From Spartobacteria bacterium (GTDB taxonomy: Bacteria; Verrucomicrobiota; Verrucomicrobiia; Chthoniobacterales; UBA6821): a DNA stretch of 64,000 nucleotides. Where the stretch lies: the NCBI GenBank assembly GCA_947487385.1, contig CANKWU010000001.1, positions 203,421 to 267,420 of the forward strand. The letters are read 5' to 3'. Shown one piece after another: positions 20,340 to 60,693 of this stretch (position 1 is its first letter; each line of letters begins with the position of its first letter). Made by a program: the position numbers and the translations under genes. The notes below the pieces were generated by a model. It had not been told where the DNA came from. It did not search any database and saw only the letters and a program-made list of their open reading frames with translations.

Positions 20340-20375
20340 GCTGAAAAGCTGAAACTTGAAACCTGAAAACTCAGA
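20340..20375 (+). repeat. 7-nt-period tandem array (consensus NCTGAAA)
   Basis: gctgaaa-a-gctgaaa-cttgaaa-cctgaaa-actcaga at the lptE/rsmI junction, overlapping the predicted rsmI TTG start. Confidence 0.75.
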
Positions 20376-21144
20376 GTCCGGGGATGAATCGGGGTTGCCA
20401 CCCCTGACGCTTGTTGCCACGCCGATCGGCAATCTCGGCGACCTCACGTTGAGGGCAATCGAATCATTGCGCTGCTGTGATGGAGTGATTGCTGAGGATA
20501 CCCGTCGCAGTTCCCAACTTCTGGCTCATCTGGAGATTCGAAAGCCCCTGATTAGTTTCCATGAACATAATGAGGAGAGACGTCTTCCTGAATTGATCTC
20601 CCGCCTCAGGGGGGGTGAGAAGTTCTGCCTGGTCACCGATGCAGGCACCCCTTCGGTGAGTGATCCGGGATTTCGCCTTGTCAGGGAATGCATTAAGGAA
20701 CAGGTGGAATACACCGTTCTTCCTGGTCCCAGTGCTGTCACGACGGCTCTGGTAGCCAGTGGTCTCCCCCCTGTGCCTTTTCATTTCGGCGGCTTTCTTC
20801 CCTCGTCTGGATCAGGAAGACGATCGGAACTCCGCAGGGCCCTAGGCCTAGGTATGACGGGAATCTATTTTGAATCCCCTCATCGCTTGGGGGCCTGTCT
20901 TGCCGATCTCTCGCTCTTGTCTCCAGAAAGTCGTCTCTGTGTTGCTCGGGAACTCTCCAAGATCCATGAGGAATACCGTCATGGACGACCTGCTGAACTT
21001 GCCGCCTACTATGCTGAAAACCCGCCTCGGGGCGAGATCACTCTGGTCATCCATCCTTCCGAAGAAAGCGCAGATGTGCCTAGGGTAGAGAAGCGTAAAA
21101 AGAGCTATTCCGAAAAGACGCCCATTCCTCGGAACTTTTCGTAG
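20356..21144 (+). CDS. rsmI: 16S rRNA (cytidine1402-2'-O)-methyltransferase
   Basis: LVATPIGNLGDLTLRA, IAEDTR, VTDAGTPSVSDPG, FESPHR, VARELSKIHEE. Start position uncertain. Confidence 0.93.
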   Translation: MKPENSESGDESGLPPLTLVATPIGNLGDLTLRAIESLRCCDGVIAEDTRRSSQLLAHLEIRKPLISFHEHNEERRLPELISRLRGGEKFCLVTDAGTPSVSDPGFRLVRECIKEQVEYTVLPGPSAVTTALVASGLPPVPFHFGGFLPSSGSGRRSELRRALGLGMTGIYFESPHRLGACLADLSLLSPESRLCVARELSKIHEEYRHGRPAELAAYYAENPPRGEITLVIHPSEESADVPRVEKRKKSYSEKTPIPRNFS

Positions 21145-22049
21145 CGTTCTTCCAGAAGCTTTTTCATCGGGATCTCTTTTAAAGCCGTAATGGCTGCTGC
21201 AATCGTCTCGGTAACTGTCGCATAGATGAGCGAAGGGTCACGATGTGCTCCTCCCAAAGGTTCGGGCAGAACACCATCGACCAAACCGAACTCCTGAAGA
21301 TCATCGGCGGTAAGTTTCAGAGCCGCCGCTGCCTCAGGAGCGTGCTTTCGATGCTTCCATAGGATGGCGGCGCATCCTTCCGGTGAGATGACAGAGTAGT
21401 AGGAGTTCTCCAGCATGAGGACCCTGTCCGCCACACCGATGCCAAGAGCCCCGCCGCTGCCGCCCTCGCCGATCACAAGGGAGATGATCTGTGTCTTCAG
21501 GGACATCATTTCTCTGAGATTGACGGCGATTGCCTCGGCAATGTGCCGCTCCTCAGCACCGATTCCAGGATAAGCACCAGGCGTATCAATGAAACAAACG
21601 ACAGGCAGTGAGAATTTTTCCGCCATTCTCATGAGGCGAAGGGCCTTGCGGTATCCCTCCGGGTGAGGACTTCCAAAATTTCGAAGGACATTCTCCTTCA
21701 CGTCGCGTCCCTTCTGCTGACCGATGATCACACAACGGTGGCCTCCGATGCGTCCGATACCTGCCGGCATAGCCTTGTCATCACCGAAGAATCGGTCACC
21801 GTGGAGTTCCACAAAGTCGCTCACGCAGGCGGAGACATAATCCAGGAAATAAGGACGAGTCGGGTGTCGTGCGATTTGCACACGTTGCCAGGGAGTAAGG
21901 TTACCGTAGAGGGCCTTACGCTGTTTCTCCAGGTCCTCACGAGCAGCCACAAGCAGGGGGTCCTCGGAGCGGCGCGTCTCTGCGAGATCCGCAACACGGC
22001 GTTCTAGATCGGCAATGGGGAGCTCAAAGTCAAGAGGTTGGACATTCAT
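21105..22049 (-). CDS. accA: Acetyl-CoA carboxylase carboxyltransferase alpha subunit
   Basis: LTPWQRVQIARHPTRP, RNFGSPHPEGYRKALR, IDTPGAYPG, GEGGSGGALG. Confidence 0.97.
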   Translation of the reverse strand: MNVQPLDFELPIADLERRVADLAETRRSEDPLLVAAREDLEKQRKALYGNLTPWQRVQIARHPTRPYFLDYVSACVSDFVELHGDRFFGDDKAMPAGIGRIGGHRCVIIGQQKGRDVKENVLRNFGSPHPEGYRKALRLMRMAEKFSLPVVCFIDTPGAYPGIGAEERHIAEAIAVNLREMMSLKTQIISLVIGEGGSGGALGIGVADRVLMLENSYYSVISPEGCAAILWKHRKHAPEAAAALKLTADDLQEFGLVDGVLPEPLGGAHRDPSLIYATVTETIAAAITALKEIPMKKLLEERYEKFRGMGVFSE

Positions 22050-22082
22050 GGAATCAAGGAGTTGGCTTCAGTGAAAAAAGGG

Positions 22083-23003
22083 TCAGTGGATAATGACCGG
22101 AGTATTTCGAGAGACGAGAGGAAAGATTTCCAGGAGATCCTCCTTGGAAAGTATATATCCCGGTGGGAGGGGGAGAGGGGAGGTTGTCGGCGAGGGGGAG
22201 CTATTCGGGCTCTGAGATGTCTGGGCAGGCGGTGGCGTTACCTGCGTCGGCGCCGGAACTGGCACTGAAATCTCAACCCCGACGATGGAGAAATTTCCGG
22301 CAAGAAGGATGATCCGTTCGCTTTGGGCATAAGCCTTGTCTCCGAAAGCAACCCTTTTGTTTCCTGCGTTGGCAAGTTTGTCGAGGATCTTGGTGGTCAA
22401 TGCGGGGACGGCCTTCATGGGGGCTGAAGGCGAGGAGAGGAGAGGGTATTCCTTCACCACGATTCCATTATCGAGAAGTGTCAGGCTCTTGGCCTTGCGG
22501 TCGAGTTCCAACGATGTGTTCAGCGAAGGGATGACAAGTTGCTGGCCGATCTGGAGGTTGATACTGGACAGGTTATTGGCTTTTTGGATCAATTCGGCAT
22601 TCGATTTTTGTTTGGAGGCGATCTTGGCAAGCGAATCCCCTTTGACAACGGTGTAGGTGATCACCTCGGGATTTCCAGATGACTGGAAAAGTAGGATCAA
22701 GTTTGCCCTACCTAGCTCCATCCGTGCTTCCTTCATAAGTGGGGACTGGGGATGGGAGTCGATCCAAGTCTTCAATCCGTCACGCGCACCGACGTTATCA
22801 CCGCTTGCCCGGAGTGATTTCAGGCGCTGGAGTTCATGGGCTCCAGGATCAGGAGTGGGGGTAGGGGTTGCCGCGATGGCTGCGGCCTTCTCTTTCTTCT
22901 CCAAGCGACTCGGCTTGATAAAGAGTTGGTAGCCGAAATAGCCGGCTGAGCCGAAAATCAGTAAGCCGAGAAGAAGAAGGGTAATGGTTTTGAATGTTCG
23001 CAT
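22083..23003 (-). CDS. Membrane-anchored LysM protein with a degenerate YkuD (L,D-transpeptidase-like) domain
   Basis: N-terminal TM; LysM YTVVKGDSLAKIA...LQIGQQLVIP; YkuD-like LELDRKAKSLTLL and C-terminal GYILSKEDLLEIFPLVSRNTPVIIH; no Cys anywhere in the protein. Confidence 0.72.
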   Translation of the reverse strand: MRTFKTITLLLLGLLIFGSAGYFGYQLFIKPSRLEKKEKAAAIAATPTPTPDPGAHELQRLKSLRASGDNVGARDGLKTWIDSHPQSPLMKEARMELGRANLILLFQSSGNPEVITYTVVKGDSLAKIASKQKSNAELIQKANNLSSINLQIGQQLVIPSLNTSLELDRKAKSLTLLDNGIVVKEYPLLSSPSAPMKAVPALTTKILDKLANAGNKRVAFGDKAYAQSERIILLAGNFSIVGVEISVPVPAPTQVTPPPAQTSQSPNSSPSPTTSPLPLPPGYILSKEDLLEIFPLVSRNTPVIIH

Positions 23004-23030
23004 GTGATAATGGCTTGTTTCTGAAGTTCC

Positions 23031-33989: not shown

Positions 33990-35072
33990 CTATTGGGAGA
34001 CCGATGCCTCGAGACGTTGTTGGGTGTCTGCGGCCCCGATGGCAGCAATCAGGTCGGCAATCTCTCCCTCCATGAAGCGGTCAAGATTGTAGAGGGTCAC
34101 TCCGATACGGTGCTCGGTGAGACGGTTCTGCGGGAAGTTGTAGGTGCGGATTTTCTCCTCCCGCCCTCCGGAGCCAATCTGGCTCTTTCGGTGGGCGGCG
34201 TATTTCTGAGCTTCCTCGTCGCGCTTCTCTTCAAGGAGTCTCGAACGCAGGATGGTGATGGCTTTTTCCTTATTCTTCTGTTGGCTGCGGCCATCCTGAC
34301 ATCGCACAATCTTGCCCGTAGGGATATGCATGACTTGGACGGCAGAGTCTGTGGTATTCACCCCCTGACCTCCGGGACCACCAGCGCGGCAGACCTCGAT
34401 GCGGAGATCCTGAGGACGAAGTTCGAAGTCGACCTCCTCGGCCTCAGGAAGGACGGCCACGGTAGCCGTGGAAGTGTGGATGCGTCCCTGAGCCTCGGTT
34501 GCGGGAACACGCTGGACGCGGTGGACGCCGCTCTCGTAACGGAGCCTGCGGAAGACATCGGTGCCGAAAATCTGGAAAATCACTTCCTTGAATCCGCCGG
34601 CATCATTCGGACTTGCCTCGATCAGCTCGTAGCGCAGTCCTGCAGCCTCGGCATAGCGAGTGTACATCCGGTAGAGATCTCCGGCAAAGATCGCGGCTTC
34701 GGAACCACCGGCCCCGGCACGGATTTCGACGATGGCATCGCGATCATCATCGGGCTGGGGAGGGAGGAGTGACACAAGAACGGTCTGCTCAAGCTTTGGT
34801 ATCCTGGCATTGATCTCCTCAATCTCGGCCTTGGCCAGGTCAGCCATCTCTGCGTCATTCCCGGAGGCCAGCTCCTCATTCTCAACAAGCTGGGCAAGGC
34901 AGCTCTCCATCTCGTCCCAAGTAGAGATGAGTTCTTTCATCCGGGCATGCTCCTTGAGCACCTCGCGGGCCTTCTTGGAATCGTCGAAGAGGGAGGGGTC
35001 AGTAATCTCCTTTTCGAGCTCCTCAAAGCGCTGACGCCTTTTGGCGATCAGTGGTTTAAAATCCAGATTCAT
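33990..35072 (-). CDS. prfA: Peptide chain release factor 1
   Basis: EIRAGAGGSEA, ESGVHRVQRVPAT (PxT), GPGGQGVN (GGQ), IRTYNFPQ. ATG 35072 chosen; a GTG alternative lies at 35087. Confidence 0.97.
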   Translation of the reverse strand: MNLDFKPLIAKRRQRFEELEKEITDPSLFDDSKKAREVLKEHARMKELISTWDEMESCLAQLVENEELASGNDAEMADLAKAEIEEINARIPKLEQTVLVSLLPPQPDDDRDAIVEIRAGAGGSEAAIFAGDLYRMYTRYAEAAGLRYELIEASPNDAGGFKEVIFQIFGTDVFRRLRYESGVHRVQRVPATEAQGRIHTSTATVAVLPEAEEVDFELRPQDLRIEVCRAGGPGGQGVNTTDSAVQVMHIPTGKIVRCQDGRSQQKNKEKAITILRSRLLEEKRDEEAQKYAAHRKSQIGSGGREEKIRTYNFPQNRLTEHRIGVTLYNLDRFMEGEIADLIAAIGAADTQQRLEASVSQ

Positions 35073-35108
35073 GTCCGTGGCTCTCACTGTTACGTTCGGG
35101 AGCCGCCC

Positions 35109-35157
35109 GGCACCGGCCTATTCCGGTGCCAATCGTCCTCCCGACTCGCGGTCGGGA
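35109..35157. other. Two adjacent GC-rich hairpins in the rpmE-prfA spacer
   Basis: GGCACCGG-N6-CCGGTGCC (35109-35130) and TCCCGAC-N5-GTCGGGA (35139-35157), both perfect stems. Confidence 0.7.
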
Positions 35158-35166
35158 AGTAGGAAG

Positions 35167-35409
35167 CTAGGCCTTGGAAGAGAGCTTCGGCTTGGTCGCG
35201 CGAGTTGCGCGGACATTGCCGTAGCGGCGCGTGAACTTCTCGATGCGGCCAGCCGTGTCGATGAACTTTTGCTCACCAGTAAAGTAAGGGTGGCATGCAG
35301 AGCAGATGCCGATCTTGATATTATCACGGGTCGAGCGGGTCTGGTAAGCGGTGCCGCAGGCGCAGATGATCGTCGTCGGGTTGTAGTTAGGATGAAGACC
35401 GGCTTTCAT
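35167..35409 (-). CDS. rpmE: 50S ribosomal protein L31 (Zn-binding type)
   Basis: MKAGLHPNY..ICACG...ICSACHPYFTGEQKFIDTAGRIEKF. Confidence 0.97.
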   Translation of the reverse strand: MKAGLHPNYNPTTIICACGTAYQTRSTRDNIKIGICSACHPYFTGEQKFIDTAGRIEKFTRRYGNVRATRATKPKLSSKA

Positions 35410-35440
35410 AGGAGTTGTTTAGAATGTAGAAAAGAGTGAC

Positions 35441-35510
35441 GAAAGGCAAAAGGAAAAATGAAGAATGAAAAAAAGGAATGACTTTTCCATTCCGCATCAT
35501 TCCTCATTCA
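35441..35510. repeat. 7-nt-period inverted arms (RGAATGA / TCATTCY)
   Basis: aaaatga-agaatga..ggaatga opposite tcattcc-tcattca; the latter forms the last codons and stop of the Ahb-like gene. Confidence 0.65.
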
Positions 35511-36597: not shown

Positions 36598-36659
36598 ATC
36601 AATAGGCTGTTAGCGGTTTAGGCTGAAAGTTGTTAGGTCCAAGAAGAAAAGGATGGATG

Positions 36660-37891: not shown

Positions 37892-38271
37892 CTAGCCTTG
37901 TCCATGGTTTCGGTCGATGTCTCGTGGATCATCTTCCAAAACTGATCGGTCGTTTCCGCCTGATCTCCATTATCGTCAACGTCGTTCATCGGGAGCTTCG
38001 ATCGGAACAGGAAATCACGGATGGTGTTCTTGTGAAGGACACGGTGAATCAAGATCCCCTCAGTATGGCGCTCGAAGTAGATCCGGTGATCCCGGCAACG
38101 GAAGCGGTGGAGTGTGCGCCCGTCACGCTGGATCGTATTAAAACTGGCTCCATCCAGAGAGTTTAGGTCTTCGGGCAGAATCTGAAATTCAGCAAGCAGG
38201 TCGAGCTGAAGGTCCTTGGGTAGGACGCTCATCTCGGAGGCGCTTACGGGGTTGAAGATGACTTGAAACAC
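37888..38271 (-). CDS. RelE/ParE-fold protein without an adjacent antitoxin
   Basis: MFQVIF...LHRFRCRDHRIYFE..EGILIHRVLHK resembles the RelE beta-sheet signature; GTG start; ATGA overlap with the aminotransferase. Confidence 0.55.
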   Translation of the reverse strand: MFQVIFNPVSASEMSVLPKDLQLDLLAEFQILPEDLNSLDGASFNTIQRDGRTLHRFRCRDHRIYFERHTEGILIHRVLHKNTIRDFLFRSKLPMNDVDDNGDQAETTDQFWKMIHETSTETMDKAR

Positions 38272-38386
38272 AGTTTGTATATGGTAGTGGAATCAGGAAA
38301 AAAGCACAGGCTTAAAGGGGATTAAAAGGCTGGCATGGGTCCCCCCCCTTTTTTTAACGCGTTAATCCAGGTGAAAGCACCTCTCC

Positions 38387-39013: not shown

Positions 39014-39057
39014 GATGAGGAAGTGGTGATGGTTGAGTTACGAATGATGAATCTGGA

Positions 39058-39088
39058 AGATGGGATTTAATCATTAAAAATCCCATCT
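39058..39088. other. 11-bp perfect inverted repeat in the bioD-phosphatase spacer
   Basis: AGATGGGATTT-N9-AAATCCCATCT. Confidence 0.7.
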
Positions 39089-39162
39089 CGGAAGTGTGAG
39101 AGTGATCGCAAAGCGTATTCAAAAATAACTGAACTTCATCCTTCGTCATGAAGCCTTGTACC

Positions 39163-39798: not shown

Positions 39799-39834
39799 GG
39801 CTGAAGGCTGAAGACTCTTAGGCTGAAGGCCTAG
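39799..39834. repeat. 7-nt-period tandem array (GGCTGAA / TTCAGCC)
   Basis: ggctgaa-ggctgaa-gactctt-a-ggctgaa-ggcctag directly upstream of bioD. Confidence 0.8.
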
Positions 39835-39865
39835 GATAAGAACCCCATGAAAGGATTGAAGTTTG

Positions 39866-39979
39866 GCTACAAGATGAACAACAAGAAGAGGTCATAAAAA
39901 AGTATTAGAAGTGATTCTTTGCGGTAAATAGATGTTCGATTGCAATCTCCGATTTCGTGTTTTTTGTGCCTTCTATGGC
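39866..39979. repeat. Inverted-arm cassette with about 9-nt period (GCCAYA..GCACA family), MITE-like
   Basis: Left arm GCTACAAGATGAACAACAAGAAG; the right arm reverse-complements to GCCATAGAAGGCACAAAAAACACGAAA. Confidence 0.55.
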
Positions 39980-40015
39980 ATCCCAGTTAAAGAAATTGTT
40001 CTAGTCCAAAAGCCT

Positions 40016-40897
40016 TTAGTCTAAACCGCCTGGCACCTTCGTCTCCTCCGTCGCTTTTAGAAAAACGGTCTCAAGATCCATTTGTGGCTGGCGATAGGAG
40101 ATGAGTCGGGCTCCCTTGGAGGCCGCAAGTCGGGCGATCTCCTCCTGAAGTTCCGGTGAGGAGTTTTCAATCACATATTCCGTCTGCCCACTGACACCTG
40201 TGAGGATATCGAGCGATCCCTCTCGGACGAGGCGCCCCTTGGCCAGGATGCCGACGCGGTCGCATACCTCCTGCACTTGCTCCAGCAGATGGGAGGTTAG
40301 CAGGATCGTCTTGCCGCGTGCTTTAAGCTGAAGGATCAAATCCCGGATTTGGCGTGATCCAGCCGGATCAACCCCTGCGGTGGGTTCGTCCAGGATGAGA
40401 AGGCGAGGATCATGAACCATGGCCTGAGCGAGGCCGATACGTTGGAGCATTCCCTTCGAATAGCTCCCGACGCGTCTGTCTCCCGCCTCGGTTAGTCCGA
40501 CGAGGTCGAGGAGTTCTGTGACGCGAGCCTTGAGTGTTTTCCCGAAGAGTCCGCAGAGTTTTCCGTAAAAGGCGATGGTTTCAGCGCCGGTGAGAAATTT
40601 GTAAAAGTAGGGATTTTCAGGCAGAAACCCGACATCCACCCGACTGATAACACGCGAACTCGGCACACCGAAGATTTCAGACGCGCCCGAAGTGGCTGTG
40701 ACCAGACCGAGCAAGATCTTCAGCGTGGTGCTTTTGCCCGATCCGTTTGGACCGAGAAGTCCATAGACACTGGCTGCGGAAATCTCAAGGGAAAGACCTC
40801 TCAGAGCAACCACCTGCCGACGACGCAGGGGAACAGGAAAGACTTTTTCGAGTTCACGGATCCTGACTGCTGGAATCTGTTCGGGAGTCGTTTCCAT
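40016..40897 (-). CDS. ABC transporter ATP-binding protein (ABC-2/DrrA-like)
   Basis: Walker A GPNGSGKST, signature YSKGM, Walker B LLILDEP, H-loop TSH. ATG 40897 preferred. Confidence 0.92.
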   Translation of the reverse strand: METTPEQIPAVRIRELEKVFPVPLRRRQVVALRGLSLEISAASVYGLLGPNGSGKSTTLKILLGLVTATSGASEIFGVPSSRVISRVDVGFLPENPYFYKFLTGAETIAFYGKLCGLFGKTLKARVTELLDLVGLTEAGDRRVGSYSKGMLQRIGLAQAMVHDPRLLILDEPTAGVDPAGSRQIRDLILQLKARGKTILLTSHLLEQVQEVCDRVGILAKGRLVREGSLDILTGVSGQTEYVIENSSPELQEEIARLAASKGARLISYRQPQMDLETVFLKATEETKVPGGLD

Positions 40898-44271: not shown

Positions 44272-44531
44272 AATTGCTTGCCAAATGACTGCTATGAACG
44301 ACACCGTCAAGAAGTCGAAATGATGTGGTGAGTCTCTTTATCCGTGAATGGCCTGATATATGCCGTCTCTTGGAGTCGTCTGATTTAGTCGAGGTTTTCC
44401 TTGATCGTATCGAGGGCATTACTTTCTCATGGTAGTTCGAGCGACTCGTGGTCAGTCAACACATGGGGAGCCGTCAGGCTGCTGGAGTCGAACGGCGATG
44501 TTTTGGATAAAATATAAAAAAAACCTAAAAC

Positions 44532-45851
44532 ATGAAGTGGATTACAAGTCAAATTGGAGCGAGGGAGCATTTTGCCATACCGAGAGTCTTGTATGCGTCG
44601 GGTAAGCTGGAGCGGCTTTACACCGACTTCTGGGCAACGGCACCTTGGAGGCTGATCGGAAAGCTGAGTGGAAATAGCGGTTTGGCGACAAGATGCCACG
44701 CTGATCTCGTAGGGGCCTCGGTCACGGGATTCAATTTCCATGCCTTGAAGTCCTTCCGCCAGCGGTTCGCTAATCCATATGATGGCTTCCTTCAAGTCGG
44801 CGAGGCCTTTGGTCGGGATGTCGTTAAAGACCTTGAGGCTGGGTCTTTCTTTCATTCCTCAGCCTTCAGCCTTCAGCCTTCAGTCTCTAGCCATTCTTGC
44901 CCCCCCTCCATCACCCATCACCTATCACCCATGACCAAAATCTTTTTTGGCTACGACACGGGTTTCCTTGAGCCCGCCCGATGGGTTAAGGCACAGGGAG
45001 GGAAGACGATCGTCTGCCAGATGGATCCGGCCCGCTATGAGGTTGATCTGGTGAAGGAGGAGGAGAAGCGCTGGCCTGGCTGGGCTAAGCGATCAGTCGA
45101 GGTTCCTGAGGCCTACTTCCAGCGTCGTGAAGCTGAGTGGACTGTTGCCGATCTCGTGATGGTAAATTCGGATTGGAGCAAGCAGGGGCTGATCCGCCAA
45201 GGGGTGAAAGAGGAAAAGATCGTTGTGGTGCCGTTGGCTTATGAAGTCACCCAGGACGAGGGAGGGGGGACGAGAGACGAGGGCTATGGGAATGCAGAAA
45301 AAAGCTCTCGACGCTCGACGTTTGACTCCCGACGCCCTTTACGAATTTTGTTTTTGGGGCAGGTCATCCTCCGCAAAGGAATCCAATATTTGATTGAAGC
45401 GGCAAGGATGCTTGAGGAGGAGTCGGTTCATTTCGATGTGGTAGGACCGATCGGGATTGCTGATGAGGGGGTGAAGTCTTCCCCTAAGAATATGACTTTT
45501 CATGGACCGGTTAGCCGTGATCGGACGGAGGAGTTTTACCGCACGGCTGATCTCTTCGTCCTACCGACTGTTTCTGATGGATTTGCACTCACTCAACTTG
45601 AAGCAATGGCTCATCGGTTGCCCGTGATCGCCACGCCAAATTGCGGTGAAGTTGTGACAGATGGAGTGGATGGATTGATCGTTCCGGCCTGTGACCCCAT
45701 GGCGCTTGCTGAGGCATTCCAGTTGCTGATTCAGGATCCTGAGAAACTCCGTGCCATGAATGAAGCAACTAAAGCAAAGGTTCAGAAATTCAGCCTGGCA
45801 AGGCTAGGTGAGAATCTCACTGCTTTGGAGCAGTATTTTCTTTCAATCTAG
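44532..45851 (+). CDS. Glycosyltransferase family 4 with two repeat-derived in-frame insertions
   Basis: LRILFLGQVILRKG, ADLFVLPTVSDGFALTQLEAMA..LPVIAT. Confidence 0.9.
   Translation: MKWITSQIGAREHFAIPRVLYASGKLERLYTDFWATAPWRLIGKLSGNSGLATRCHADLVGASVTGFNFHALKSFRQRFANPYDGFLQVGEAFGRDVVKDLEAGSFFHSSAFSLQPSVSSHSCPPSITHHLSPMTKIFFGYDTGFLEPARWVKAQGGKTIVCQMDPARYEVDLVKEEEKRWPGWAKRSVEVPEAYFQRREAEWTVADLVMVNSDWSKQGLIRQGVKEEKIVVVPLAYEVTQDEGGGTRDEGYGNAEKSSRRSTFDSRRPLRILFLGQVILRKGIQYLIEAARMLEEESVHFDVVGPIGIADEGVKSSPKNMTFHGPVSRDRTEEFYRTADLFVLPTVSDGFALTQLEAMAHRLPVIATPNCGEVVTDGVDGLIVPACDPMALAEAFQLLIQDPEKLRAMNEATKAKVQKFSLARLGENLTALEQYFLSI
44852..44935 (+). repeat. Twelve in-register heptamer units (84 nt) inside the GT4 CDS
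   Basis: tcattcc-(tcagcct)x3-tcagtct-ctagcca-ttcttgc-cccccct-ccatcac-ccatcac-ctatcac-ccatgac. Confidence 0.8.
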
Positions 45852-45878
45852 AGCCCTCGACTCTCGACTATCCCTATC

Positions 45879-45995: not shown

Positions 45996-46000
45996 ACGAT

Positions 46001-47329
46001 ATGAATCTGCAAAAATATTTTAATAAAACTCGGCAAGAATACCAAGAAGCCTATGACATGCTTGCATTCTACCTTGCAGATGAAGGACAAGACTCGGCAG
46101 AATACCAACTGCAGTCATTTGCTGAAATTTGGGAGGATGCGGTTACTGACATTCCTTACTACAAGAAGCTTGTCTCAACTAGGAAAGCCCCTAGAAAAAT
46201 TAAATCCTGGGATGATTTCAAAGAAATTCCTGAACTCACAAGAGATATTGTTCATAATAACAGGGCTGAATTGATTCGGTATAAATCCAAGCCCCCTTTG
46301 CTCCGAATGACTGGTGGGTCCACTGGCAATCCTATGCAATTCGGTGTTTCCAGAGAGGAGGGTAGGCGGATTCGATTGTTAAAACTGATTCTCTGGATTC
46401 GGGCCGGATATAAGATAGATTCCAATATTTTTCTTCTATGGGGACATACTCATCTGCTTGGCAATGGAATCCGCAAATATAGGAATATGTTAGTTCGAGG
46501 CGTTAAGGATATCCTTCTAGGATATACTCGTGTTGATGCCCATCATCTTGGCATTGAAACCTGCAGGAAATATGCGCAAAAACTACTATCATCCAAGGCC
46601 AATGCAGTAATCGGATATACAGCTGCGATTGACCAGTTCACTAGATCAATTCCTGAATTTCGTGAGCGTATTCGAGAATTGAACTTAACGTTTGTTATGA
46701 CCTGTTCAGAGATGGCTCCAAGGGAAGATACTTACTCCATCTTAAGCGATTATTTTGGATGTCCGATAATCCAAGAGTATGGTGGAGTGGATCTTGGTCA
46801 AATCGCTATGAAATATCACGATGAACCTTTCAAGGTCTTCCATCGGGAAAATATCGTGGAGTCTCTGGATGCAGAGGCGGAAAAAGAAAGCTCACCTGTC
46901 CTTGTAACAACAACATACAAAAGATACTTTCCCCTGATCAGATATCGTGCAGGAGATCTTTTGCAGGGATGCAAACTCAACACCCAGGGTAATGTCATTT
47001 CGTTTAAGAGTCTTAGTGGGAGAGAAAATGATGTTGTGACACTTCCGAACGGAGAAATTCTACATAGCCTTAGTTTTCTTCATTGTATCAGGGAGGAAAA
47101 AGAGGTGCATCAAGTGCAACTTATTCTCGAAGATCATGGAATGGAAATATTGCTGGTCGTTTCAATGTCCTATTCAGAAGAGGTGGAAAAGCGGATTCGA
47201 GTCCGCCTTTTAAAGCTTTCAAGCAGTCTCACTAATTTCAGTATTCGGACGACAAACGATCTCTCTACTACTATAGCAGGAAAGAGATCGTGGGTGATTG
47301 ACCGGAGGAAGAGGAATGCTGGTGCGTGA
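46001..47329 (+). CDS. Phenylacetate-CoA-ligase-like adenylate-forming enzyme (CapK-like)
   Basis: IPYYK, MTGGSTGNP (P-loop), QEYGGVDLG, FPLIRYRAGD, GRENDVV; AT-rich (24/60 GC at 46021-46080). Confidence 0.85.
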   Translation: MNLQKYFNKTRQEYQEAYDMLAFYLADEGQDSAEYQLQSFAEIWEDAVTDIPYYKKLVSTRKAPRKIKSWDDFKEIPELTRDIVHNNRAELIRYKSKPPLLRMTGGSTGNPMQFGVSREEGRRIRLLKLILWIRAGYKIDSNIFLLWGHTHLLGNGIRKYRNMLVRGVKDILLGYTRVDAHHLGIETCRKYAQKLLSSKANAVIGYTAAIDQFTRSIPEFRERIRELNLTFVMTCSEMAPREDTYSILSDYFGCPIIQEYGGVDLGQIAMKYHDEPFKVFHRENIVESLDAEAEKESSPVLVTTTYKRYFPLIRYRAGDLLQGCKLNTQGNVISFKSLSGRENDVVTLPNGEILHSLSFLHCIREEKEVHQVQLILEDHGMEILLVVSMSYSEEVEKRIRVRLLKLSSSLTNFSIRTTNDLSTTIAGKRSWVIDRRKRNAGA

Positions 47330-48615
47330 CCATGCAGGAGATTACAACTGCTATCGTATTTTGGAGGCTTGGTCCTTACCACCATGCCCGAATGAATGCA
47401 GCGGGAAAGCTTAACAAAACCATCGGACTAGAGGCCTGTGGGATTGAGGATACCTATGCATGGGACACTGTGTCCGGATCTCAAGAATTCGACCGGATCA
47501 CCTTGACGAGAAAATATTCTCCCACAAGAGCCTGGAGAAGAGAACTGCAGCAGCAGATGTTTCAAGAACTAGACCGTATTAGTCCTGATGTCCTAGTTAT
47601 CCCCGGATGGGTGATGCCCGATGCCATTAGTGGATTGTATTGGGCTATAAAAAAGAACATTCCTGTTGTCTGCATGTCTGAGTCCACGCGGTGGGATGCA
47701 GAACGCAGTCCGATCAAAGAATGGGTTAAGAGGAGGATTATCTCCCTCTTCTCGGCGGCGCTGGTAGGTGGAACTCCCCATCGGGACTACATGTTAAATC
47801 TGGGGATGCCTGCCGATCGGATCTTCCTGGGCTATGATGCGGTAGATAACGGATTTTTCTCAGAGGGAGTGAGAAAAATCGTCGAGGGTCGAGAATCGAG
47901 AGTCAAGAGAACTGCAGTACAAGACGAAGCAAGGGAGATAGGATCTAGGAGATTGGAGGTGGGGGAAAGGAAGAAGCCTTACTTCCTTGCATTGGCCCGC
48001 TTCATCGAGAAAAAGAATTTGCCCCGATTACTCCGTGCGTATGCTCACTATCGGGGAAAGAGTTTGCCCTCGACCCTCGACGTTCGACCCTCGACTGCTC
48101 AGTCCACTTGGGATCTGGTCATTATCGGTGATGGGGAACTGCGTTCTGATCTGGAAAAATTGAGCTCGGAACTTGGTCTTGAGGACTGCGTTCAGATGCC
48201 TGGATTCAAACAGTATGAGCAGCTTCCTTCGTACTACGCAAATGCTGGAGCCTTTATTCACGCCAGCACGACGGAGCCGTGGGGACTGGTGATCAACGAA
48301 GCGATGGCATCGGGACTCCCTGTTCTGGTGAGCAACCGCTGTGGATGCGCTACTGATCTGGTACAGGAGGGAGAGAACGGATGGACTTTCGATCCCTTCA
48401 ATGAGGAGCAGATGGCGGATCTGATGCTCAGAATCTCAAGTGATGAAGATGGAAGATTGAAGATGGGAGTCAGAAGTCGTGATATTATCGCTATTTGGGG
48501 TCTGGATCGTTTTGCGTCTGGTCTCACTGGGGCCGTTCAGGCCGCGCTCTCAGAACCTAGGAAGGGCGCCGGATTTCTCAATCGACTTCTTTTATCTGTA
48601 TTGATTCGCAGATAG
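47326..48615 (+). CDS. Glycosyltransferase family 4 with repeat-derived insertions
   Basis: YFLALARFIEKKNLPRLL, IIGDGELR, EPWGLVINEAMASGLPV. Confidence 0.9.
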   Translation: MTMQEITTAIVFWRLGPYHHARMNAAGKLNKTIGLEACGIEDTYAWDTVSGSQEFDRITLTRKYSPTRAWRRELQQQMFQELDRISPDVLVIPGWVMPDAISGLYWAIKKNIPVVCMSESTRWDAERSPIKEWVKRRIISLFSAALVGGTPHRDYMLNLGMPADRIFLGYDAVDNGFFSEGVRKIVEGRESRVKRTAVQDEAREIGSRRLEVGERKKPYFLALARFIEKKNLPRLLRAYAHYRGKSLPSTLDVRPSTAQSTWDLVIIGDGELRSDLEKLSSELGLEDCVQMPGFKQYEQLPSYYANAGAFIHASTTEPWGLVINEAMASGLPVLVSNRCGCATDLVQEGENGWTFDPFNEEQMADLMLRISSDEDGRLKMGVRSRDIIAIWGLDRFASGLTGAVQAALSEPRKGAGFLNRLLLSVLIRR

Positions 48616-48708
48616 GGTAAGGTAAGAATTCATAGGATCTCACGACCGAGCGCTTGGTCCTCGTAGGGGTCCCTAGTGAGGGGAACGAGATTTATCGGGC
48701 GCCGATAA

Positions 48709-49353
48709 TCAGCCTTCCATGGTAAGAATGGTGACAAGTTGCTTAGGATTTGTATCGAGTAAATTCACGTGCGCCGTGATCGGACTTCCTTTTATTTCGA
48801 GTTCGAGGTGACTTCTGTCACGGTATTCCACGTGGTTTCCCTCATGGAACAAGGACAGATAAGAGGCGATGCATTTCCCTTGTTTCAATTTAGGTGCCGG
48901 AAGGTCGAAATAATTCGGGTACTCTTGACTCTTATCAAGATCGAAGAGTTGCTGAGTTTTTTCATTGAGATAGAGGATATTCCCCTCAATATCTGAAATA
49001 AAGACAGGAAGAGGCATACCAAGGATAATATGGTTCAATGTATTCCGATTTTTCCTTACTCTTGTTAGGAGATATGAAAAAATGCAGGCAAAGGCTGCGG
49101 AGCATATATAGCTCAATAAACTGAATTTGTGGGAGTGTAATTCTAAGGGAGAGCATCCTCCGCTTAATAGGGAGTATATTTTAGGATTTAATAGTATTTG
49201 AATCCCCACCAGAGAGTAAATCGTTCCCCAAAAGAAAACCCATGCTGGCTTCATCAAAATTGATGCAAGAAGAAGCCCCATCGATAGCAGGGCCGGGGAG
49301 ATAGTTTGATAATTAGATTCCCAGTCGTAGAGAAGGACAAACCCAAGATACAA
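48709..49353 (-). CDS. Membrane protein with a C-terminal PAS-like domain, no output domain
   Basis: Three hydrophobic segments, then GMPLPVFISDIEGNILYLNEKTQQLF (PAS start); AT-rich; TTG start uncertain. Confidence 0.6.
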   Translation of the reverse strand: MYLGFVLLYDWESNYQTISPALLSMGLLLASILMKPAWVFFWGTIYSLVGIQILLNPKIYSLLSGGCSPLELHSHKFSLLSYICSAAFACIFSYLLTRVRKNRNTLNHIILGMPLPVFISDIEGNILYLNEKTQQLFDLDKSQEYPNYFDLPAPKLKQGKCIASYLSLFHEGNHVEYRDRSHLELEIKGSPITAHVNLLDTNPKQLVTILTMEG

Positions 49354-49518
49354 TGCCGGAATAAGCTGACACAGTGCTTTCCTGAGAATGGGGTGAGGTC
49401 ATTCATTTTCGGAAAATGTGGCTATTTCCCTTCAATAAAACTATACTCTTATTATGTTTGCAAGAAGTGACAATTTGCTTCGCAGATCACGCTAGAGCAG
49501 TGGCCTCCACCTTTTTTT

Positions 49519-50730
49519 ATGATTCGCTGCAACAATCTTACAGGGCCAGTTTCCCGTTCTGCGGGGGGACTCTATGAGAGCGTTCGAAGGCTTGCTCAAG
49601 AACTGCGGATTACTGGGATTGAGGTGGCTGTGCTCGGGAGCTTAGACGAGTTTACCAAGACGGATATTGCAGCATGGGATCCTGTGACGATAAGGGCTTT
49701 TAGGACGTTCGGGCCGAGGCAGTTTGGCTATTCCCATGAGTATTTGGAGTTCCTAAAGGCTTATCGCCCCCACCTCATTCATACTCATGGAATCTGGATC
49801 TATTCGAGCATGGCAACCTTAATACATGCAAAGAGGTGTGGGATTCCTTATATGATTTCTCCTCACGGGATGCTCGACCCCTGGGCTCTCAGGAATTCCC
49901 GGTGGAAAAAAATCCCGGCATATTGGCTCTATGAAAGGGCTCATCTGAATAAGGCTTCTGTCATGCGCGCTCTGTGTGAATCGGAGGCAGAGTCGTTCAG
50001 GAAGTTCGGATTAAAAAATCCGATTGCGATCATTCCGAATGGGATTGATTTGCCTGAGGAATCGTCGAGGAAAGCTGCAAATCATGAGGGTAAGAAAACG
50101 CTGCTTTTTCTTGGAAGAATTCATCCGAAGAAGGGACTGTCTAATCTGATTCGTGCTTTTGCCAGAAGTCGGGGATCAAGGGGCGAGAATCACGAGCAAT
50201 GGCATCTGCTTATGGTAGGATGGGATCAGGGAGGACATGAAGATGAGCTTATGCAACTCTGCGGGGAACTTGAGCTGAGTATTAGCCACAAGATACACAA
50301 AAATCACACGGGAAATGATAGAGACGATGCAGATGTCATCTTTTACGGGCCGGCTTTCAAGGAGGAGAAAGAGCTTCTTTTGAACTCGGCCGATGCCTTT
50401 GTCCTTCCTTCCTTCAGCGAAGGACTTCCGATGTCGGTTCTTGAGGCATGGGCGCATGGTCTGCCTGTCGTGATGACCCCTGAGTGTAATCTTCCGGAGG
50501 GGTTTGCCGCCGATGCCGCGATCCGTACCGAGACGGATGTGGAGAGTATCGCTCAGGGGCTCGAGGCTCTCTTCTCCATGAATGATGCCGACTTGAAAGA
50601 GATGGGAGCTAGGGGGAGAGCGCTGGTCCGTCAGAAATTCACTTGGCAGAATGTCGCCGGGCAGATGAAGGATGTCTACGACTGGATGCTGGGTGGAGGA
50701 ATGCCTCCAAGTTGCGTTGAGATAAGCTGA
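49519..50730 (+). CDS. Glycosyltransferase family 4
   Basis: ISPHGMLDPW, LLFLGRIHPKKG, FVLPSFSEGLPMSVLEAWA. Confidence 0.93.
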   Translation: MIRCNNLTGPVSRSAGGLYESVRRLAQELRITGIEVAVLGSLDEFTKTDIAAWDPVTIRAFRTFGPRQFGYSHEYLEFLKAYRPHLIHTHGIWIYSSMATLIHAKRCGIPYMISPHGMLDPWALRNSRWKKIPAYWLYERAHLNKASVMRALCESEAESFRKFGLKNPIAIIPNGIDLPEESSRKAANHEGKKTLLFLGRIHPKKGLSNLIRAFARSRGSRGENHEQWHLLMVGWDQGGHEDELMQLCGELELSISHKIHKNHTGNDRDDADVIFYGPAFKEEKELLLNSADAFVLPSFSEGLPMSVLEAWAHGLPVVMTPECNLPEGFAADAAIRTETDVESIAQGLEALFSMNDADLKEMGARGRALVRQKFTWQNVAGQMKDVYDWMLGGGMPPSCVEIS

Positions 50731-50829
50731 TGATAAGTTTCTTAGATTCTCTTTTTTAGCCCTCAACCTTTTGTCACTCGTCATCTCGACTTCAGTCACT
50801 TCTTCCAGTTAAGCATTTAATTTTTCCTT

Positions 50830-52230
50830 ATGGATCCTTTGGTTTCCGTATCCTTCCCCTTACCATTTTATCTCTGTATTATTGCAGTCCTGTCGCTTGC
50901 TCGGACCGCATGGCAAAGGCGTTATGAAGGTTGGGGGATCCCGATGCTGGCGGTCGTGGCGACTGCGGCTGTGTGGTATATTGGTGACGTTCTTTATAAT
51001 GATTATGGAGCTTACGCGAAGCAGTTTGGCGATGGTCCCTTAATCTCCGCGTGGTGGGAAATTCTGTTGTTCTTCATCACCCTTGGAATCCTGACGCCCA
51101 TCATCAATCGCAAGATCAACGGGAATCTGCTCAATGAGGGAAGTCAGATCCTCCAGATGATGCAGAATGGTGCCGTCGATCAGGTGCAATTTCAGGATCA
51201 GATCAGCGCCATCGGACGATTGCTGCTTTGGCCATGGGTCGTACTGATGGCGACGGGATTGGTCAAAACCCATTTTGATGTTATCGGGATGTTTTTCCCA
51301 TACCTAGGTGAAAAAGCTGATCCATGGTCTAGGAATCGTATTGGCGGAGGAATCGATGCCCTCTATGCTTTGGCCGGCTATTTTCAATTAATGCTCACCG
51401 CTCTCTGGGGAGTTGTATTTGCTCTGAGTAAAAGGTCTTCCACATTCGTGATGGCTGGCATCATCTATTTTCTCTCAGCTCCCTTCTATGTATTTGATAG
51501 GACACGCAGTTATATGCTGGCGATCTTGTTGCCAGGATTTATGGCTTTGGTATCGCTGCGAGTCAAAAAGGGAATCTGGGTAAGATTAATCTTATGCGGG
51601 GCCAGTTTTTTGGTGCTCGAGCAGTGGATGAAGTTTGTGATTGATAACCGAGACAAGGGTAGTATTGCCGCATCCTTCAAAACCGGTGGCACACAAGATC
51701 TGCAAGTAAAAGCCAGAAAACATGGTGGATTTAACATGTATCAGGAGCTTTGTTATATTAATTACTATATCGCTCAGGGCAGCTATAAGGTGAACTGGGG
51801 AAGCCGCTATTTCGCGGAAATTGTGAATCCGATTCCGAGAGTGCTCTGGCCGGGCAAGCCAATGATCGGGATTGACTATGCGATCGCGCGAGGCATGGCC
51901 TACGGGACTCTAAATGCCAAGTCGGGAGGCATTGCCTCCTCGATATCCACTGGGATGATTGGCCAGGGGGTGGTGAACTTCGGAGGCTTCCTCGGGCCGA
52001 TTGTCGCAGCATTCCTGATGGCAGTTTGGATCGCCGTGCTGGCTAGGCAGGATCTGATGGGAAACGATCTTGGCCACCTCCTGCTCTATGCTATCGGGCT
52101 GGTACTCACTTATAACATGGGCCGCGATATTACGCTCTTGATTCTCTACCCATTTGTCTTTGGCCTGATCCTACTGAACTTTGTCAATAAACGAAAAGAT
52201 AACCAACTCCCCCTAACCGATGAGACTTGA
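50830..52230 (+). CDS. Polytopic membrane protein, probable Wzy-like polysaccharide polymerase
   Basis: About 10 hydrophobic segments; DRTRS motif; NPIPRVLWPGKP periplasmic loop; EPS context. Confidence 0.65.
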   Translation: MDPLVSVSFPLPFYLCIIAVLSLARTAWQRRYEGWGIPMLAVVATAAVWYIGDVLYNDYGAYAKQFGDGPLISAWWEILLFFITLGILTPIINRKINGNLLNEGSQILQMMQNGAVDQVQFQDQISAIGRLLLWPWVVLMATGLVKTHFDVIGMFFPYLGEKADPWSRNRIGGGIDALYALAGYFQLMLTALWGVVFALSKRSSTFVMAGIIYFLSAPFYVFDRTRSYMLAILLPGFMALVSLRVKKGIWVRLILCGASFLVLEQWMKFVIDNRDKGSIAASFKTGGTQDLQVKARKHGGFNMYQELCYINYYIAQGSYKVNWGSRYFAEIVNPIPRVLWPGKPMIGIDYAIARGMAYGTLNAKSGGIASSISTGMIGQGVVNFGGFLGPIVAAFLMAVWIAVLARQDLMGNDLGHLLLYAIGLVLTYNMGRDITLLILYPFVFGLILLNFVNKRKDNQLPLTDET

Positions 52231-59917: not shown

Positions 59918-59946
59918 TCATTAGCCCTAAGATGAGACTGCGGTGG

Positions 59947-60642
59947 TTACTCTAATATGCGGGTGAAGTTCTTTGCAGGCTCGCGTTCCGTGCAGAGAGT
60001 ATTTTCGATTTTTTCCGAATCACTATAACCCAGTGCCATGCCGCAGACGAGCATCTGTCGTTCGGGAATCTCCAGATGCTGCGCTATGATGCGGTGGTAT
60101 TTGCAGAAAGCTGCCTGAGGGCAGGTATCGAGTCCGCGGGCCCGAGCCGCAAGCATGACGTTCTGCAGAAACATGCCGTAGTCGAGCCAGCTACCCTGTC
60201 CCATGATCCGGTCAATAGTGAAAAAGAGACCGACTGGAGCATCGAAGAAGGCGTAGTTGCGGGCAAACTGTTGCTCCATGCGCTTGCTCTCCCCCTTGGC
60301 AATGCCGAGTAGTCCGTAGAGGTCGTAGCCGACTTTGCGCCTACGATCGATATAGGGAGCTAACCACTTTTCCGGATAGTAGGAGTATTCCTGTTTATGT
60401 TCAGCATCACGGATCGGATCGAGGGCTGTCTCGATGAGTTCCCGGGAAAGAGACTCCTTCTTCTCCCCGCTCACCACGATCACTTGCCAAGGCTGCGTAT
60501 TCGTCCCGGAAGGGGCGCGGGATGCGATATCCAGAATCTCCAGAGTAGTTTCCTTAGGCACGGGGGTTGGCAGAAATCCCCGCACCGAGCGTCTTCCACG
60601 GATCACCTCATCAACGATCCTGGTGATTTCCGCCTGCTTCAT
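59947..60642 (-). CDS. Nitroreductase family protein
   Basis: RRSVRGF, RAPSGTNTQPW, FFDAPVGL, LAARARGLDTCPQ. Confidence 0.93.
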   Translation of the reverse strand: MKQAEITRIVDEVIRGRRSVRGFLPTPVPKETTLEILDIASRAPSGTNTQPWQVIVVSGEKKESLSRELIETALDPIRDAEHKQEYSYYPEKWLAPYIDRRRKVGYDLYGLLGIAKGESKRMEQQFARNYAFFDAPVGLFFTIDRIMGQGSWLDYGMFLQNVMLAARARGLDTCPQAAFCKYHRIIAQHLEIPERQMLVCGMALGYSDSEKIENTLCTEREPAKNFTRILE

Positions 60643-60665
60643 GTCCTGCTTTCGGTGTGGTGCCG

Positions 60666-60693
60666 TTTAGCCTTTAGCCTTTAGCCTTCATCC
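60666..60693. repeat. 7-nt-period tandem array (TTTAGCC)x3 plus TTCATCC
   Basis: Perfect heptamer copies at the boundary of the GC-richer GH1 segment. Confidence 0.85.

Follow-up and report, generated by a model that had tools for sequence, protein, structure and literature searches.

Tandem heptamer and octamer arrays at gene junctions of a Chthoniobacterales genome: probable arms of hairpin gene-cassette families

Short tandem arrays of 7- or 8-nt units mark many gene junctions in a 64,000-nt stretch of a Spartobacteria genome (the window; C1:203421-267420, where C1 is contig CANKWU010000001.1). They are probably the arms of hairpin gene cassettes, either paired or as solo relatives, and belong to a population of repeats at gene junctions that occurs across much of Chthoniobacterales. 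The genome (G000) is a metagenome-assembled genome (MAG) of 2.05 Mb in 48 contigs with a G+C content of 54.8% and a completeness of 94%, and the RF1 gene of the window shares 96% identity with freshwater Chthoniobacterales ("Spartobacteria") MAGs. A first-pass annotation of the window had listed seven such arrays and proposed an element defined by its 7-nt period rather than by its sequence, possibly the scars of mobile single-gene cassettes. The cassette idea is right in kind, as it holds for one junction of the window and for the genus at large, but not as a blanket reading of all arrays as scars.

The association of the arrays with two families of small genes was surveyed in 13 genomes of the genus, with arms defined as flanking inverted repeats scoring at least 14 and small open reading frames (ORFs) of G000 as controls. 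Arms enclose 19 of 29 genes for four-helix-bundle proteins of the PF05635 family (S23p/Avd-like) and 18 of 24 genes of the PDDEXK_3 family (GxxExxY), compared with 5 of 342 control ORFs (p about 1e-20), so that the link of similar arms with four-helix-bundle and GxxExxY genes, as stated in the first-pass annotation, holds in this genus. The period of the arms, classified only where autocorrelation reached at least 0.6, differs between the two families:

PF05635 arms: period 7 in 10 cases, period 8 in 4, period 9 in 0.
PDDEXK_3 arms: period 7 in 0 cases, period 8 in 8, period 9 in 7.

Period 7 is found in 10 of 14 classifiable PF05635 arms but in 0 of 15 PDDEXK_3 arms (p = 5e-5), and this gene-specific period argues against genes that simply landed in pre-existing repeats. 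G000 itself has two genes of each family, one of each within inverted arrays:

C16, 37877-38388: cassette with heptamer arms around a PF05635 gene (37909-38319).
C4, 30723-31161: cassette with octamer arms (ATATGGAACTCATGAAATCAGGAA ... TTCCTGATTTCCTGAGTTCCACAT) around a PDDEXK_3 gene.

The arms of the C16 cassette read GAGTCGA AAGACGA AAGACGA GGGCCGA ... TCGACTT TCGACCC TCGTCGT TCGACTC. The cassette on C4 is present at the same junction (B|C) in five genomes of the genus and missing in eight, all of which hold other purine-first array hairpins instead. The neighbouring A|B junction has an empty GCGCAGAG pair in G000, a PF05635 gene in G012 and G001 (between AGGCTCTAG arms) and in G009 (between AGGCTGA x5 and TCAGCCT x4), an empty GGAACTCA pair in G008, and nothing in G006 and G003. 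Arm families that are empty in G000, namely GCGCAGAG and GGAACTCA, enclose PDDEXK_3 genes in sister genomes, as does CACAGGGATGAAG in sisters.

The same alternation of filled and empty states is present in the window, at the junction of an ABC ATPase gene and a bioD-like gene:

40001-40025, minus strand: left arm, stop-proximal, sense strand TTTAGACTAAAGGCTTTTGGACTAG; partner of the 39799 arm, absent from the first-pass list.
39835-40000, minus strand: 166-nt non-coding loop between the two arms, with homology to that of G008.
39799-39834, minus strand: right arm, pyrimidine-rich, start-proximal; GGCTGAA, 4.4 copies, 69% identity; confirmed.

The stop codon of the ABC-transporter gene (TAA, 40016-40018) falls in the left arm, within TTAGACTAA, and the right arm (sense strand CCTAGGCCTTCAGCCTAAGAGTCTTCAGCCTTCAGCC) ends 9 nt ahead of the bioD start. 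A comparison of this junction with sister genomes, as proposed by the first-pass annotation, did reveal an inserted gene between arms of the same families. The spacers of G004 and G005 are longer by about 330 nt and 310 nt, respectively, and each holds a PF05635 gene. The left arm of G004 (TTTAGACTGAAGACTGTTAGAC...) contains the ABC stop codon (the counterpart of 40001-40025 is TTTAGACTGAAGACTGTTAGACTATTAGAC, with the stop TGA inside), and its right arm or arms (CTAACAGCCTAACAGTCTTCAG...TTCAGCCTTCAGCC) reach up to the bioD start. The junction is gene-less in G000, G008, G003, and G010, with arms around a loop of only 45-60 nt in the latter two; a different arm family, made of octamers, stands in G012, G011, and G006, and G007 has nothing.

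Throughout G000, arrays were counted if they had three or more units and no more than 15% mismatch, and the counts were compared with an order-3 Markov shuffle:

Period 5: 46 observed, 56 in the shuffle.
Period 7: 60 observed, 5 in the shuffle.
Period 8: 43 observed, 2 in the shuffle.
Period 10: 1 observed, 0 in the shuffle.
Period 11: 0 observed, 0 in the shuffle.

Arrays of periods 6 and 9 are mostly coding in this genome. The shuffles rule out a chance origin of the arrays. They also rule out a pure period-7 phenomenon: the scan for a conserved 7-nt period confirmed the enrichment at that lag, but period 8 is equally enriched, and one of the arrays listed in the first pass (36603-36637) itself has period 8. 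On a deliberately greedy and crude ORF map that assigns 91% of the genome to coding sequence, 33 of the 60 heptamer arrays and 36 of the 43 octamer arrays are intergenic, compared with an expectation of about 9%, and the coding copies have a total length that is a multiple of 3 nt. The arrays thus have both properties by which long simple-sequence repeats (LSSRs) of prokaryotes are recognized, i.e., head-to-tail units of 5-11 nt in excess of chance and a mainly non-coding location where unit length is not divisible by 3.

The unit sequences, which the first-pass annotation had regarded as not conserved, recur far more often than intergenic k-mers. Pairs of arrays with identical units make up 1.9% of heptamer and 4.0% of octamer pairs, compared with 0.11% and 0.04% for intergenic k-mers, an excess of 17-fold and about 100-fold, respectively. 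Recurrent families include AGGCTGA/TCAGCCT, CTGAAAN, GAATGA, RGTCGAG, GCGCAGAG, and GGAACTCA, some of which have fixed non-repeat termini (TCTCGCGCAGAG...CTCTGCGCGAGA and ATATGGAA...TTCCATAT); one octamer family with defined ends has the form TCTCGCGCAGAG(RCGCAGAG)n ... (CTCTGCGY)nCTCTGCGCGAGA, with loops of 40-130 nt that are not conserved between copies. A definition by period rather than by sequence therefore fails on both counts, as the periods are 7 and 8 (and 9 in relatives) and the units form recurrent sequence families. These families are common to the genus and partly to the order (AGGCTGA, GAATGAA, CTGAAAC, CCTCCGA, and GCGCAGAG were seen across genomes), and the TCAGCCT array of the window matches dozens of non-orthologous sites in sister genomes. 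Variant units are expanded inside arrays (e.g., TTCAGCT x2 followed by CTCAGGT x8, or AGGGCTA followed by AGGGGTA), which is the usual signature of slippage.

Arrays were also counted in samples of 100-200 kb from each of seven relatives:

G012, same genus, 200 kb: 29 heptamer arrays, 14 octamer arrays.
G009, same genus, 200 kb: 19 heptamer, 6 octamer.
G004, same genus, 103 kb: 6 heptamer, 6 octamer.
G002, same genus, 200 kb: 7 heptamer, 1 octamer.
G018, other family, 200 kb: 17 heptamer, 1 octamer.
G015, other family, 200 kb: 6 heptamer, 3 octamer.
G016, other family, 151 kb: 0 heptamer, 1 octamer.

Apart from that single octamer hit, arrays are missing from G016 alone among the sampled genomes, and so is PF05635; in G015, the arrays cluster at its PF05635 genes. 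Several contigs of the G000 assembly end in or share long arrays (C7:1-72 and C44:10036-10113 with CAGTCTAA + CTCTGCGT; C12:51565-51615 and C15:47100-47173 with CTATCTY), which indicates that the arrays break the assembly and that the copy number of long arrays may be under-reported.

The arrays are oriented with respect to genes. In tandem gene contexts, pyrimidine-sense arrays are nearer to the downstream start in 24 of 31 cases and purine-sense arrays nearer to the upstream stop in 12 of 14 (Fisher p = 1.6e-4). An inverted partner within 800 nt was found for 25 of 114 arrays, with the purine-rich arm first in 21 of the 25 (p = 9e-4), and the same order is seen in pairs between convergent genes, whose spacers are free of any leader constraint. 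The genome lacks a Shine-Dalgarno signal (only 14% of the leaders have a Shine-Dalgarno-like motif), and the frequency of G drops to 0.15-0.19 upstream of start codons; a start-adjacent array that is pyrimidine-rich and poor in G therefore fits the general composition of leaders. One inverted pair of TTCATNA-type arrays (C46:2600-3230) encloses an arfB/ICT1-like gene for a peptidyl-tRNA hydrolase (GGQ motif). It was rejected as a cassette; the enclosed gene is a housekeeping gene, and the pair is better read as leader arrays of neighboring divergent or tandem genes. A selection of units as three-frame stop blocks was likewise rejected: stops occur in 37 of 60 heptamer units on the purine-rich strand and in 8 of 60 on the other strand, and composition predicts as much.

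The remaining arrays of the window were called with Tandem Repeats Finder (TRF), our own lag scans, and inspection of the sequence. Together with the pair at ABC|bioD, they comprise the following:

20340-20375, plus strand: solo direct array, purine-rich sense; units GCTGAAAA GCTGAAA CTTGAAA CCTGAAAA, 7 and 8 nt mixed; confirmed.
35441-35510, minus strand: inverted pair, hairpin with GAATGA/TCATTC arms; confirmed.
36603-36637, minus strand: weak pyrimidine-rich arm of period 8 with only three imperfect units (TAGGCTGT TAGCGGTT TAGGCTGA); real.
44859-44883 (TCAGCCT x3.6) and 44908-44936 (CCATCAC x4), plus strand: clean arrays missed in the first pass.
45307, 47881, 48067, and 48445, plus strand: arrays inside ORFs, also missed in the first pass; found by TRF or scans.
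45854-45868, plus strand: two CYCTCGA units (CCCTCGA CTCTCGA) directly past the stop of a glycosyltransferase gene; too short for significance alone.
50773-50800, no strand: claimed GTCACT-like array; not an array.
60666-60696, minus strand: solo array, purine-rich sense; TTTAGCC x3 and degenerate units, sense strand AGGATGA AGGCTAA AGGCTAA AGGCTAA; confirmed.

Of the seven arrays listed in the first pass, five are thus real tandem repeats, the short one at 45854-45868 is marginal, and the one at 50773-50800 was called neither by TRF nor by our scan. A search of the window against Rfam at gathering thresholds yielded no known RNA family and no rRNA. The gene neighborhood is one of ordinary housekeeping and polysaccharide genes: the listed arrays are surrounded by lptE, rsmI, prfA, rpmE, the bioD-like gene, and the genes for an AhbA/B-like regulator-type protein, a class-V aminotransferase, the ABC ATPase, a nitroreductase, a GH1 enzyme, and three GT4 glycosyltransferases.

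Stop codons are supplied by arrays at two junctions of the window, as the first-pass annotation had proposed for the Ahb-like gene; a start codon within an array is uncertain. Besides the TAA of the ABC gene, the TGA of the Ahb-like gene lies in a GAATGA unit of the purine arm of the hairpin at 35441-35510 (GAAUGAGGAAUGAUGCGGAAUGG), whose pyrimidine arm (CAUUCCUUUUUUUCAUUCUUCAUU) leads into the leader of rpmE (L31). The minus-strand RNA of this hairpin has a predicted folding energy of -28.2 kcal/mol (z -4.66), and its core looks like an intrinsic terminator. Antisense to rpmE (35167-35409, minus strand), which the simple ORF list misses, runs a spurious ORF (35041-35439, plus strand). At the other end of the Ahb-like gene, the arm at 36603-36637 (sense strand CCTAACAACTTTCAGCCTAAACCGCTAACAGCCTA) ends 5 nt ahead of the start; like the 39799 arm, it is of the CTAACAGCC/TTCAGCC family, and no gene-sized change in length was found at this junction in sister genomes. 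The array at 20340-20375 begins 10 nt past the stop of lptE (20327-20329), upstream of rsmI. The longest ORF of rsmI begins at a TTG inside the array (20356), with an alternative TTG at 20392. In G004 and G012, the stretch ahead of the conserved LTLVATPIGN motif shows little conservation, and the start of rsmI is uncertain (20356-20420). The array at 60666-60696 begins 14 nt past the stop of the GH1 gene and ends 21 nt ahead of the start of the nitroreductase gene.

Several of these arrays are old. An array stands directly past the lptE stop in most of the 11 sisters compared; its units are identical in G004, read AGGCTGA x4 in G012, G009, and G010, and are split by a 33-nt insert in G002. The GH1 and nitroreductase genes are adjacent in 12 of 12 sisters, with AGGCT[AG]A-type units in five genomes (among the sisters, G004, G003, G008, and G001) and different units in the rest (e.g., G009 and G012), all read from individual sequences only, because the alignment mixed strands for four sisters. 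At the junction of the Ahb-like gene and rpmE, relatives at 89-96% identity share the flanking sequence but not the array region. Among near-clonal strains, the hairpin at 35441-35510 is unchanged in 10 contigs except for one or two substitutions, and the array at 60666-60696 is identical in six other samples; a look-up of strain contigs with a DUF885 protein gave no match, probably since the called start differs.

Two further spacers of the window differ in gene content among sisters. The spacer at 39014-39162 (149 nt, plain in the window) corresponds in G012 and G005 to a two-gene module between the histidine-phosphatase gene and bioD, which encodes a ribbon-helix-helix antitoxin-like protein and a PemK/MazF-like toxin (G012:C38:14400-15450 and G005:C55:3330-4130); it is flanked by heptamer or octamer arrays on both sides in G012 and on the downstream side only in G005. 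In G002 (C10:8680-9820), a gene of ~234 aa is inserted at the spacer corresponding to 38272-38386; judging from its sequence alone, it may encode an FkbM-type methyltransferase. Elsewhere in the window, an octamer array (GAAGGATT x3.6; 8288-8315) overlaps the 3' end (stop 8310-8312) of an ORF of 1038 aa (5196-8312).

Other arrays are translated in frame inside glycosyltransferase (GT) genes:

44852-44935, plus strand: 12 heptamer units (TCAGCCT type, then CCATCAC type), 84 nt = 28 codons, in frame in the GT4 gene 44532-45851.
45307-45335, plus strand: heptamer array of the CTCGACG type, also in frame, within the inter-domain linker of that gene and preceded by GACGAGR units (45262-45290).
47881-48095, plus strand: inverted pair GTCGAGG GTCGAGA ATCGAGA ... 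CCCTCGA CCCTCGA CGTTCGA, in frame in a second GT4 gene (47326-48615).

The first of these genes is real (439 aa by independent gene calls, with a conserved N-terminus), and the ORF on its opposite strand (44427-44855, minus) is spurious, being antisense to the N-terminal part. At the site of the 12 units, G012 and G009 have other in-frame arrays, and G011 and G010 have none. In the second gene, the purine arm again comes first, the arms are about 160 nt apart, and a further array follows at 48445-48466. Most of the arrays inside ORFs of the window fall in the polysaccharide/GT4 cluster (46000-52000), which has a G+C content of 0.45-0.49, compared with 0.52-0.59 otherwise, and is poorly conserved in sisters; this suggests a variable, possibly transferred surface-glycan locus.

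If the arrays are arms of cassettes, the basic element would be a hairpin of 2-5 tandem units (in rare cases as many as about 20), each 7 or 8 nt long or, in relatives, also 9 nt, in which a purine-rich arm at or on the upstream stop codon is followed by a loop and a complementary pyrimidine-rich arm a few nucleotides before the next start. The loop would consist of 30-200 nt of non-coding DNA, of a small accessory gene (PF05635 with heptamer or octamer arms, or PDDEXK_3, with the GxxExxY nuclease fold, with octamer or nonamer arms), or occasionally of a toxin-antitoxin pair. Most arrays of G000, including most of those in the window, would be pairs without a gene, or single arms, from these families. 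The arrays would change by slippage and unit turnover. Species would acquire, lose, or swap the content of the loop, with an arm pair retained at the junction. By analogy with the S23p-bearing intervening sequences (IVSs) of 23S rRNA, which RNase III cuts out, the arms may pair in the read-through transcript, with insulation, termination, or processing of the flanking cistrons as a possible result. The pyrimidine arm may double as the G-poor leader needed by an organism without Shine-Dalgarno motifs, and stems of tandem units may tolerate slippage by pairing in several registers. What is directly observed is that the arrays exist, with their period, placement, and chirality, that they go with the two gene families, and that presence and absence vary at fixed junctions; the RNA stem, its RNase III-type processing, the leader role, and a specificity of proteins for their arms are inferred by analogy and from statistics. 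It is conceivable, though we would propose it only tentatively, that the elements are undescribed selfish hairpin cassettes, each with a small protein matched to its own repeat that recognizes, maintains, or mobilizes the stem, with processing at the RNA level as in the 23S IVSs. Under such a scheme, PF05635 proteins (toroidal pentamers with the Avd fold) might be matched to units of 7-8 nt and GxxExxY nucleases of the PD-(D/E)XK type to units of 8-9 nt.

Several observations weigh against an interpretation as cassette arms. Most arrays of the window are solo and unpaired, and some inverted pairs are just two leader arrays facing opposite ways, as on C46. No inserted gene was found at lptE|rsmI in any of the sisters compared (n = 11), at GH1|nitroreductase among 12 sisters, or at ahb|rpmE among five relatives; the arrays at these junctions drift in place, which is also expected of plain slippage repeats. 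In the 166-nt loop of ABC|bioD, neither blastn nor tblastn detected a remnant of PF05635 (tblastn E > 1), and the predicted fold of the complete spacer is about as stable as that of shuffled sequences (z about 0), so that the loop is not to be taken for a decayed PF05635 gene. No copy-number change was found at 35441, 44859, 44908, 45307, 47881, 48067, or 60666 across 4-10 metagenome contigs, a comparison of low power among consensus assemblies from independent samples that encode exactly the same neighboring proteins and are 99-100% identical. No mobilizing enzyme was identified, and a Y1 (RAYT) transposase is absent. The co-occurrence of arrays and PF05635 comes from eight genomes, uncorrected for phylogeny; all genomes are MAGs, in which assembly can collapse repeats or break contigs at them; and the case for stem formation and cutting by RNase III is one of analogy only.

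The same drift would be expected if the arrays were plain LSSRs, an unlikely explanation in which slippage favors units of 7-8 nt, arrays survive only where harmless, and selfish genes land there incidentally. Heptanucleotide LSSRs are described as the commonest class in many bacteria, with polymerase slippage as their proposed origin (Mrazek et al. 2007, as summarized in PMC4679880; PMC4692102); in the present arrays, variant units have expanded, orthologous copies have drifted in situ, and coding copies keep a length divisible by 3. Slippage, however, leaves unexplained why arms are mutually complementary around 37 of 53 genes but only around 5 of 342 controls, why their period depends on the enclosed gene family, why some arm families have fixed non-repeat termini, why purine-first chirality extends to convergent spacers, and why identical units recur across genomes. 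We consider it rather improbable that the arrays are cis-regulatory elements independent of any cassette, with pyrimidine arrays as unstructured leaders to which S1 or cold-shock-domain proteins would bring ribosomes in an organism that lacks Shine-Dalgarno signals, and purine-first hairpins as terminators or processing sites. The orientation of arrays toward start and stop codons, the G-poor leaders with few Shine-Dalgarno-like motifs, the terminator-like and well-folding core at 35441-35510 with its subsequent T-run, and the TAACTGA repeats just upstream of starts in Beggiatoaceae, for which binding of S1, Csp, or CsrA has been proposed (PMC4679880), are all in line with such a role. Yet units and copy number vary freely between orthologous junctions, the array is missing in some sisters, arrays are also translated inside genes, and no link to particular gene classes was seen; moreover, cis-regulation is compatible with hairpin cassettes rather than exclusive of them.

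The proposal of the first-pass annotation that each array is the excision footprint of a mobile single-gene cassette and is defined only by its 7-nt period now appears very unlikely in this general form. The link to cassettes stands, since filled and empty states of the same arm pair occur at ABC|bioD and at two other junctions, but the arms are sequence families, empty junctions often carry another arm family than filled ones, the ABC|bioD loop lacks any gene remnant, and lptE|rsmI, GH1|nitroreductase, and ahb|rpmE are never filled in the sisters compared although their arrays are old. In the sisters examined, most arrays of the window stand as long-lived solo arms or as small hairpins and never bear a gene. 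An identity with a known repeat system, be it REP/REPIN with RAYT, miniature inverted-repeat transposable elements (MITEs) of an insertion-sequence family, integron attC sites, or phase-variation repeats, is the least credible of all. Hairpin doublets with conserved ends in many copies are REPIN- or MITE-like, and arrays in glycosyltransferase genes are reminiscent of classical contingency loci; however, loops are not conserved between copies, and REP/RAYT was rejected, as neither G000 (94% complete) nor 8 of 12 sisters have a gene for the Y1 (RAYT) transposase (PF01797). By inspection, the attC cores R'' (RYYYAAC) and R' (GTTRRRY) are missing from most arm families; only the TTAGACTG family spells GTTAGAC/GTCTAAC, whereas AGGCTGA, GAGTCGA, GCGCAGAG, GGAACTCA, and GGGATGAAG arms do not, and the elements are scattered singly at housekeeping junctions. 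Phase variation is opposed by arrays that are short and imperfect and by unit numbers that are constant in near-clonal contigs from 4-10 independent samples, although this last evidence is weak.

Heptanucleotide tandem repeats have been on record in bacterial genomes since 1990, and in a study from 2007, they reportedly formed the commonest class of long simple-sequence repeats. To our knowledge, they have no accepted origin or function, and we know of no role for the abundant S23p/PF05635 "intervening-sequence proteins" and GxxExxY proteins. The present results connect these unknowns in a testable manner: within a single genus, inverted arms built from such repeats, with the purine arm first, wrap members of both gene families, their period varies with the gene they enclose, and filled, empty, and single-armed versions alternate at the same junction. 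If this is true beyond Verrucomicrobia, it would imply a common origin for the unexplained heptanucleotide repeats of Cyanobacteria, Beggiatoaceae, and Xanthomonas and a function for the "rRNA intervening-sequence proteins". The arrays also matter for genome annotation, as they contain stop codons, displace predicted starts, create spurious ORFs (as at 44427-44855 and 35041-35439), and sit translated in real genes.

REP, BIME, and REPIN elements (with RAYT) are many-copy, hairpin-forming extragenic repeats located past stop codons, and some copies of the Rickettsia palindromic elements (RPEs) are translated in frame inside genes. The arrays resemble the former in copy number, hairpin formation, and placement past stops and the latter in their in-frame translated copies; they differ in that there is no RAYT gene, that the arms consist of tandem short units, and that the loops are variable and sometimes gene-bearing.

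Heptanucleotides are foremost among the LSSRs of 5-11 nt, with a known intergenic bias (Mrazek et al. 2007, as summarized in PMC4679880), and examples include the heptamers of the cyanobacterial STRR repeats and the GGGAATC/GGGGAYT repeats of Xanthomonas and Nostoc (PMC4692102). The arrays of G000 share with them the dominance of period 7, the strong intergenic bias, the small number of unit families per genome, the lack of conservation at the same genes between related species, and the occurrence of some inverted pairs. They differ in that octamers are as common as heptamers, that arrays are short (3-5 units), and that a strict purine-first chirality, a rule of placement at stops and starts, and an association with two small-gene families are present. 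The direct repeats of the heptamer TAACTGA in marine Beggiatoaceae, some Cyanobacteria, and Bacteroidetes (MacGregor 2015, PMC4679880) also form arrays of 2-6 copies a few nucleotides upstream of starts and share a CTGA core with AGGCTGA and AGCTGAA units. However, they consist of a single unit, compared with dozens here, and in G000, start-proximal arrays are mostly pyrimidine-rich in sense, whereas CTGA-type (purine) arrays follow stops; TAACTGA itself is not among the units of the 60 heptamer arrays.

Our literature search found no published account of GxxExxY or four-helix-bundle genes packaged in this way outside rRNA. Within rRNA, IVSs that bear an ORF occur in the 23S rRNA of Coxiella burnetii, Leptospira, Salmonella, and others and are regarded as selfish; that of Coxiella contains an S23p ORF, a 28-bp terminal inverted-repeat stem cut by RNase III, and tandem heptamers (GACAGAT) whose number varies among strains (PMC4990558). 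PF05635 has the fold of Avd, a protein of diversity-generating retroelements (PMC10053308). The elements described here are alike in the terminal inverted-repeat stem, found around 19 of 29 PF05635 genes, in the loop with a PF05635 (S23p) four-helix-bundle gene, found at C16:37909-38319 and at ABC|bioD of G004 and G005 but not in the window itself, and in the tandem heptamers, which are also present in the 5' arm region of the Coxiella IVS. They are unlike it in their location between or inside protein-coding genes rather than in helix 25 or 45 of 23S rRNA, in arms built of tandem units of 7-9 nt from many families, in the many copies that are gene-less or single-armed, and in the presence of a second gene family, PDDEXK_3, in the same packaging.

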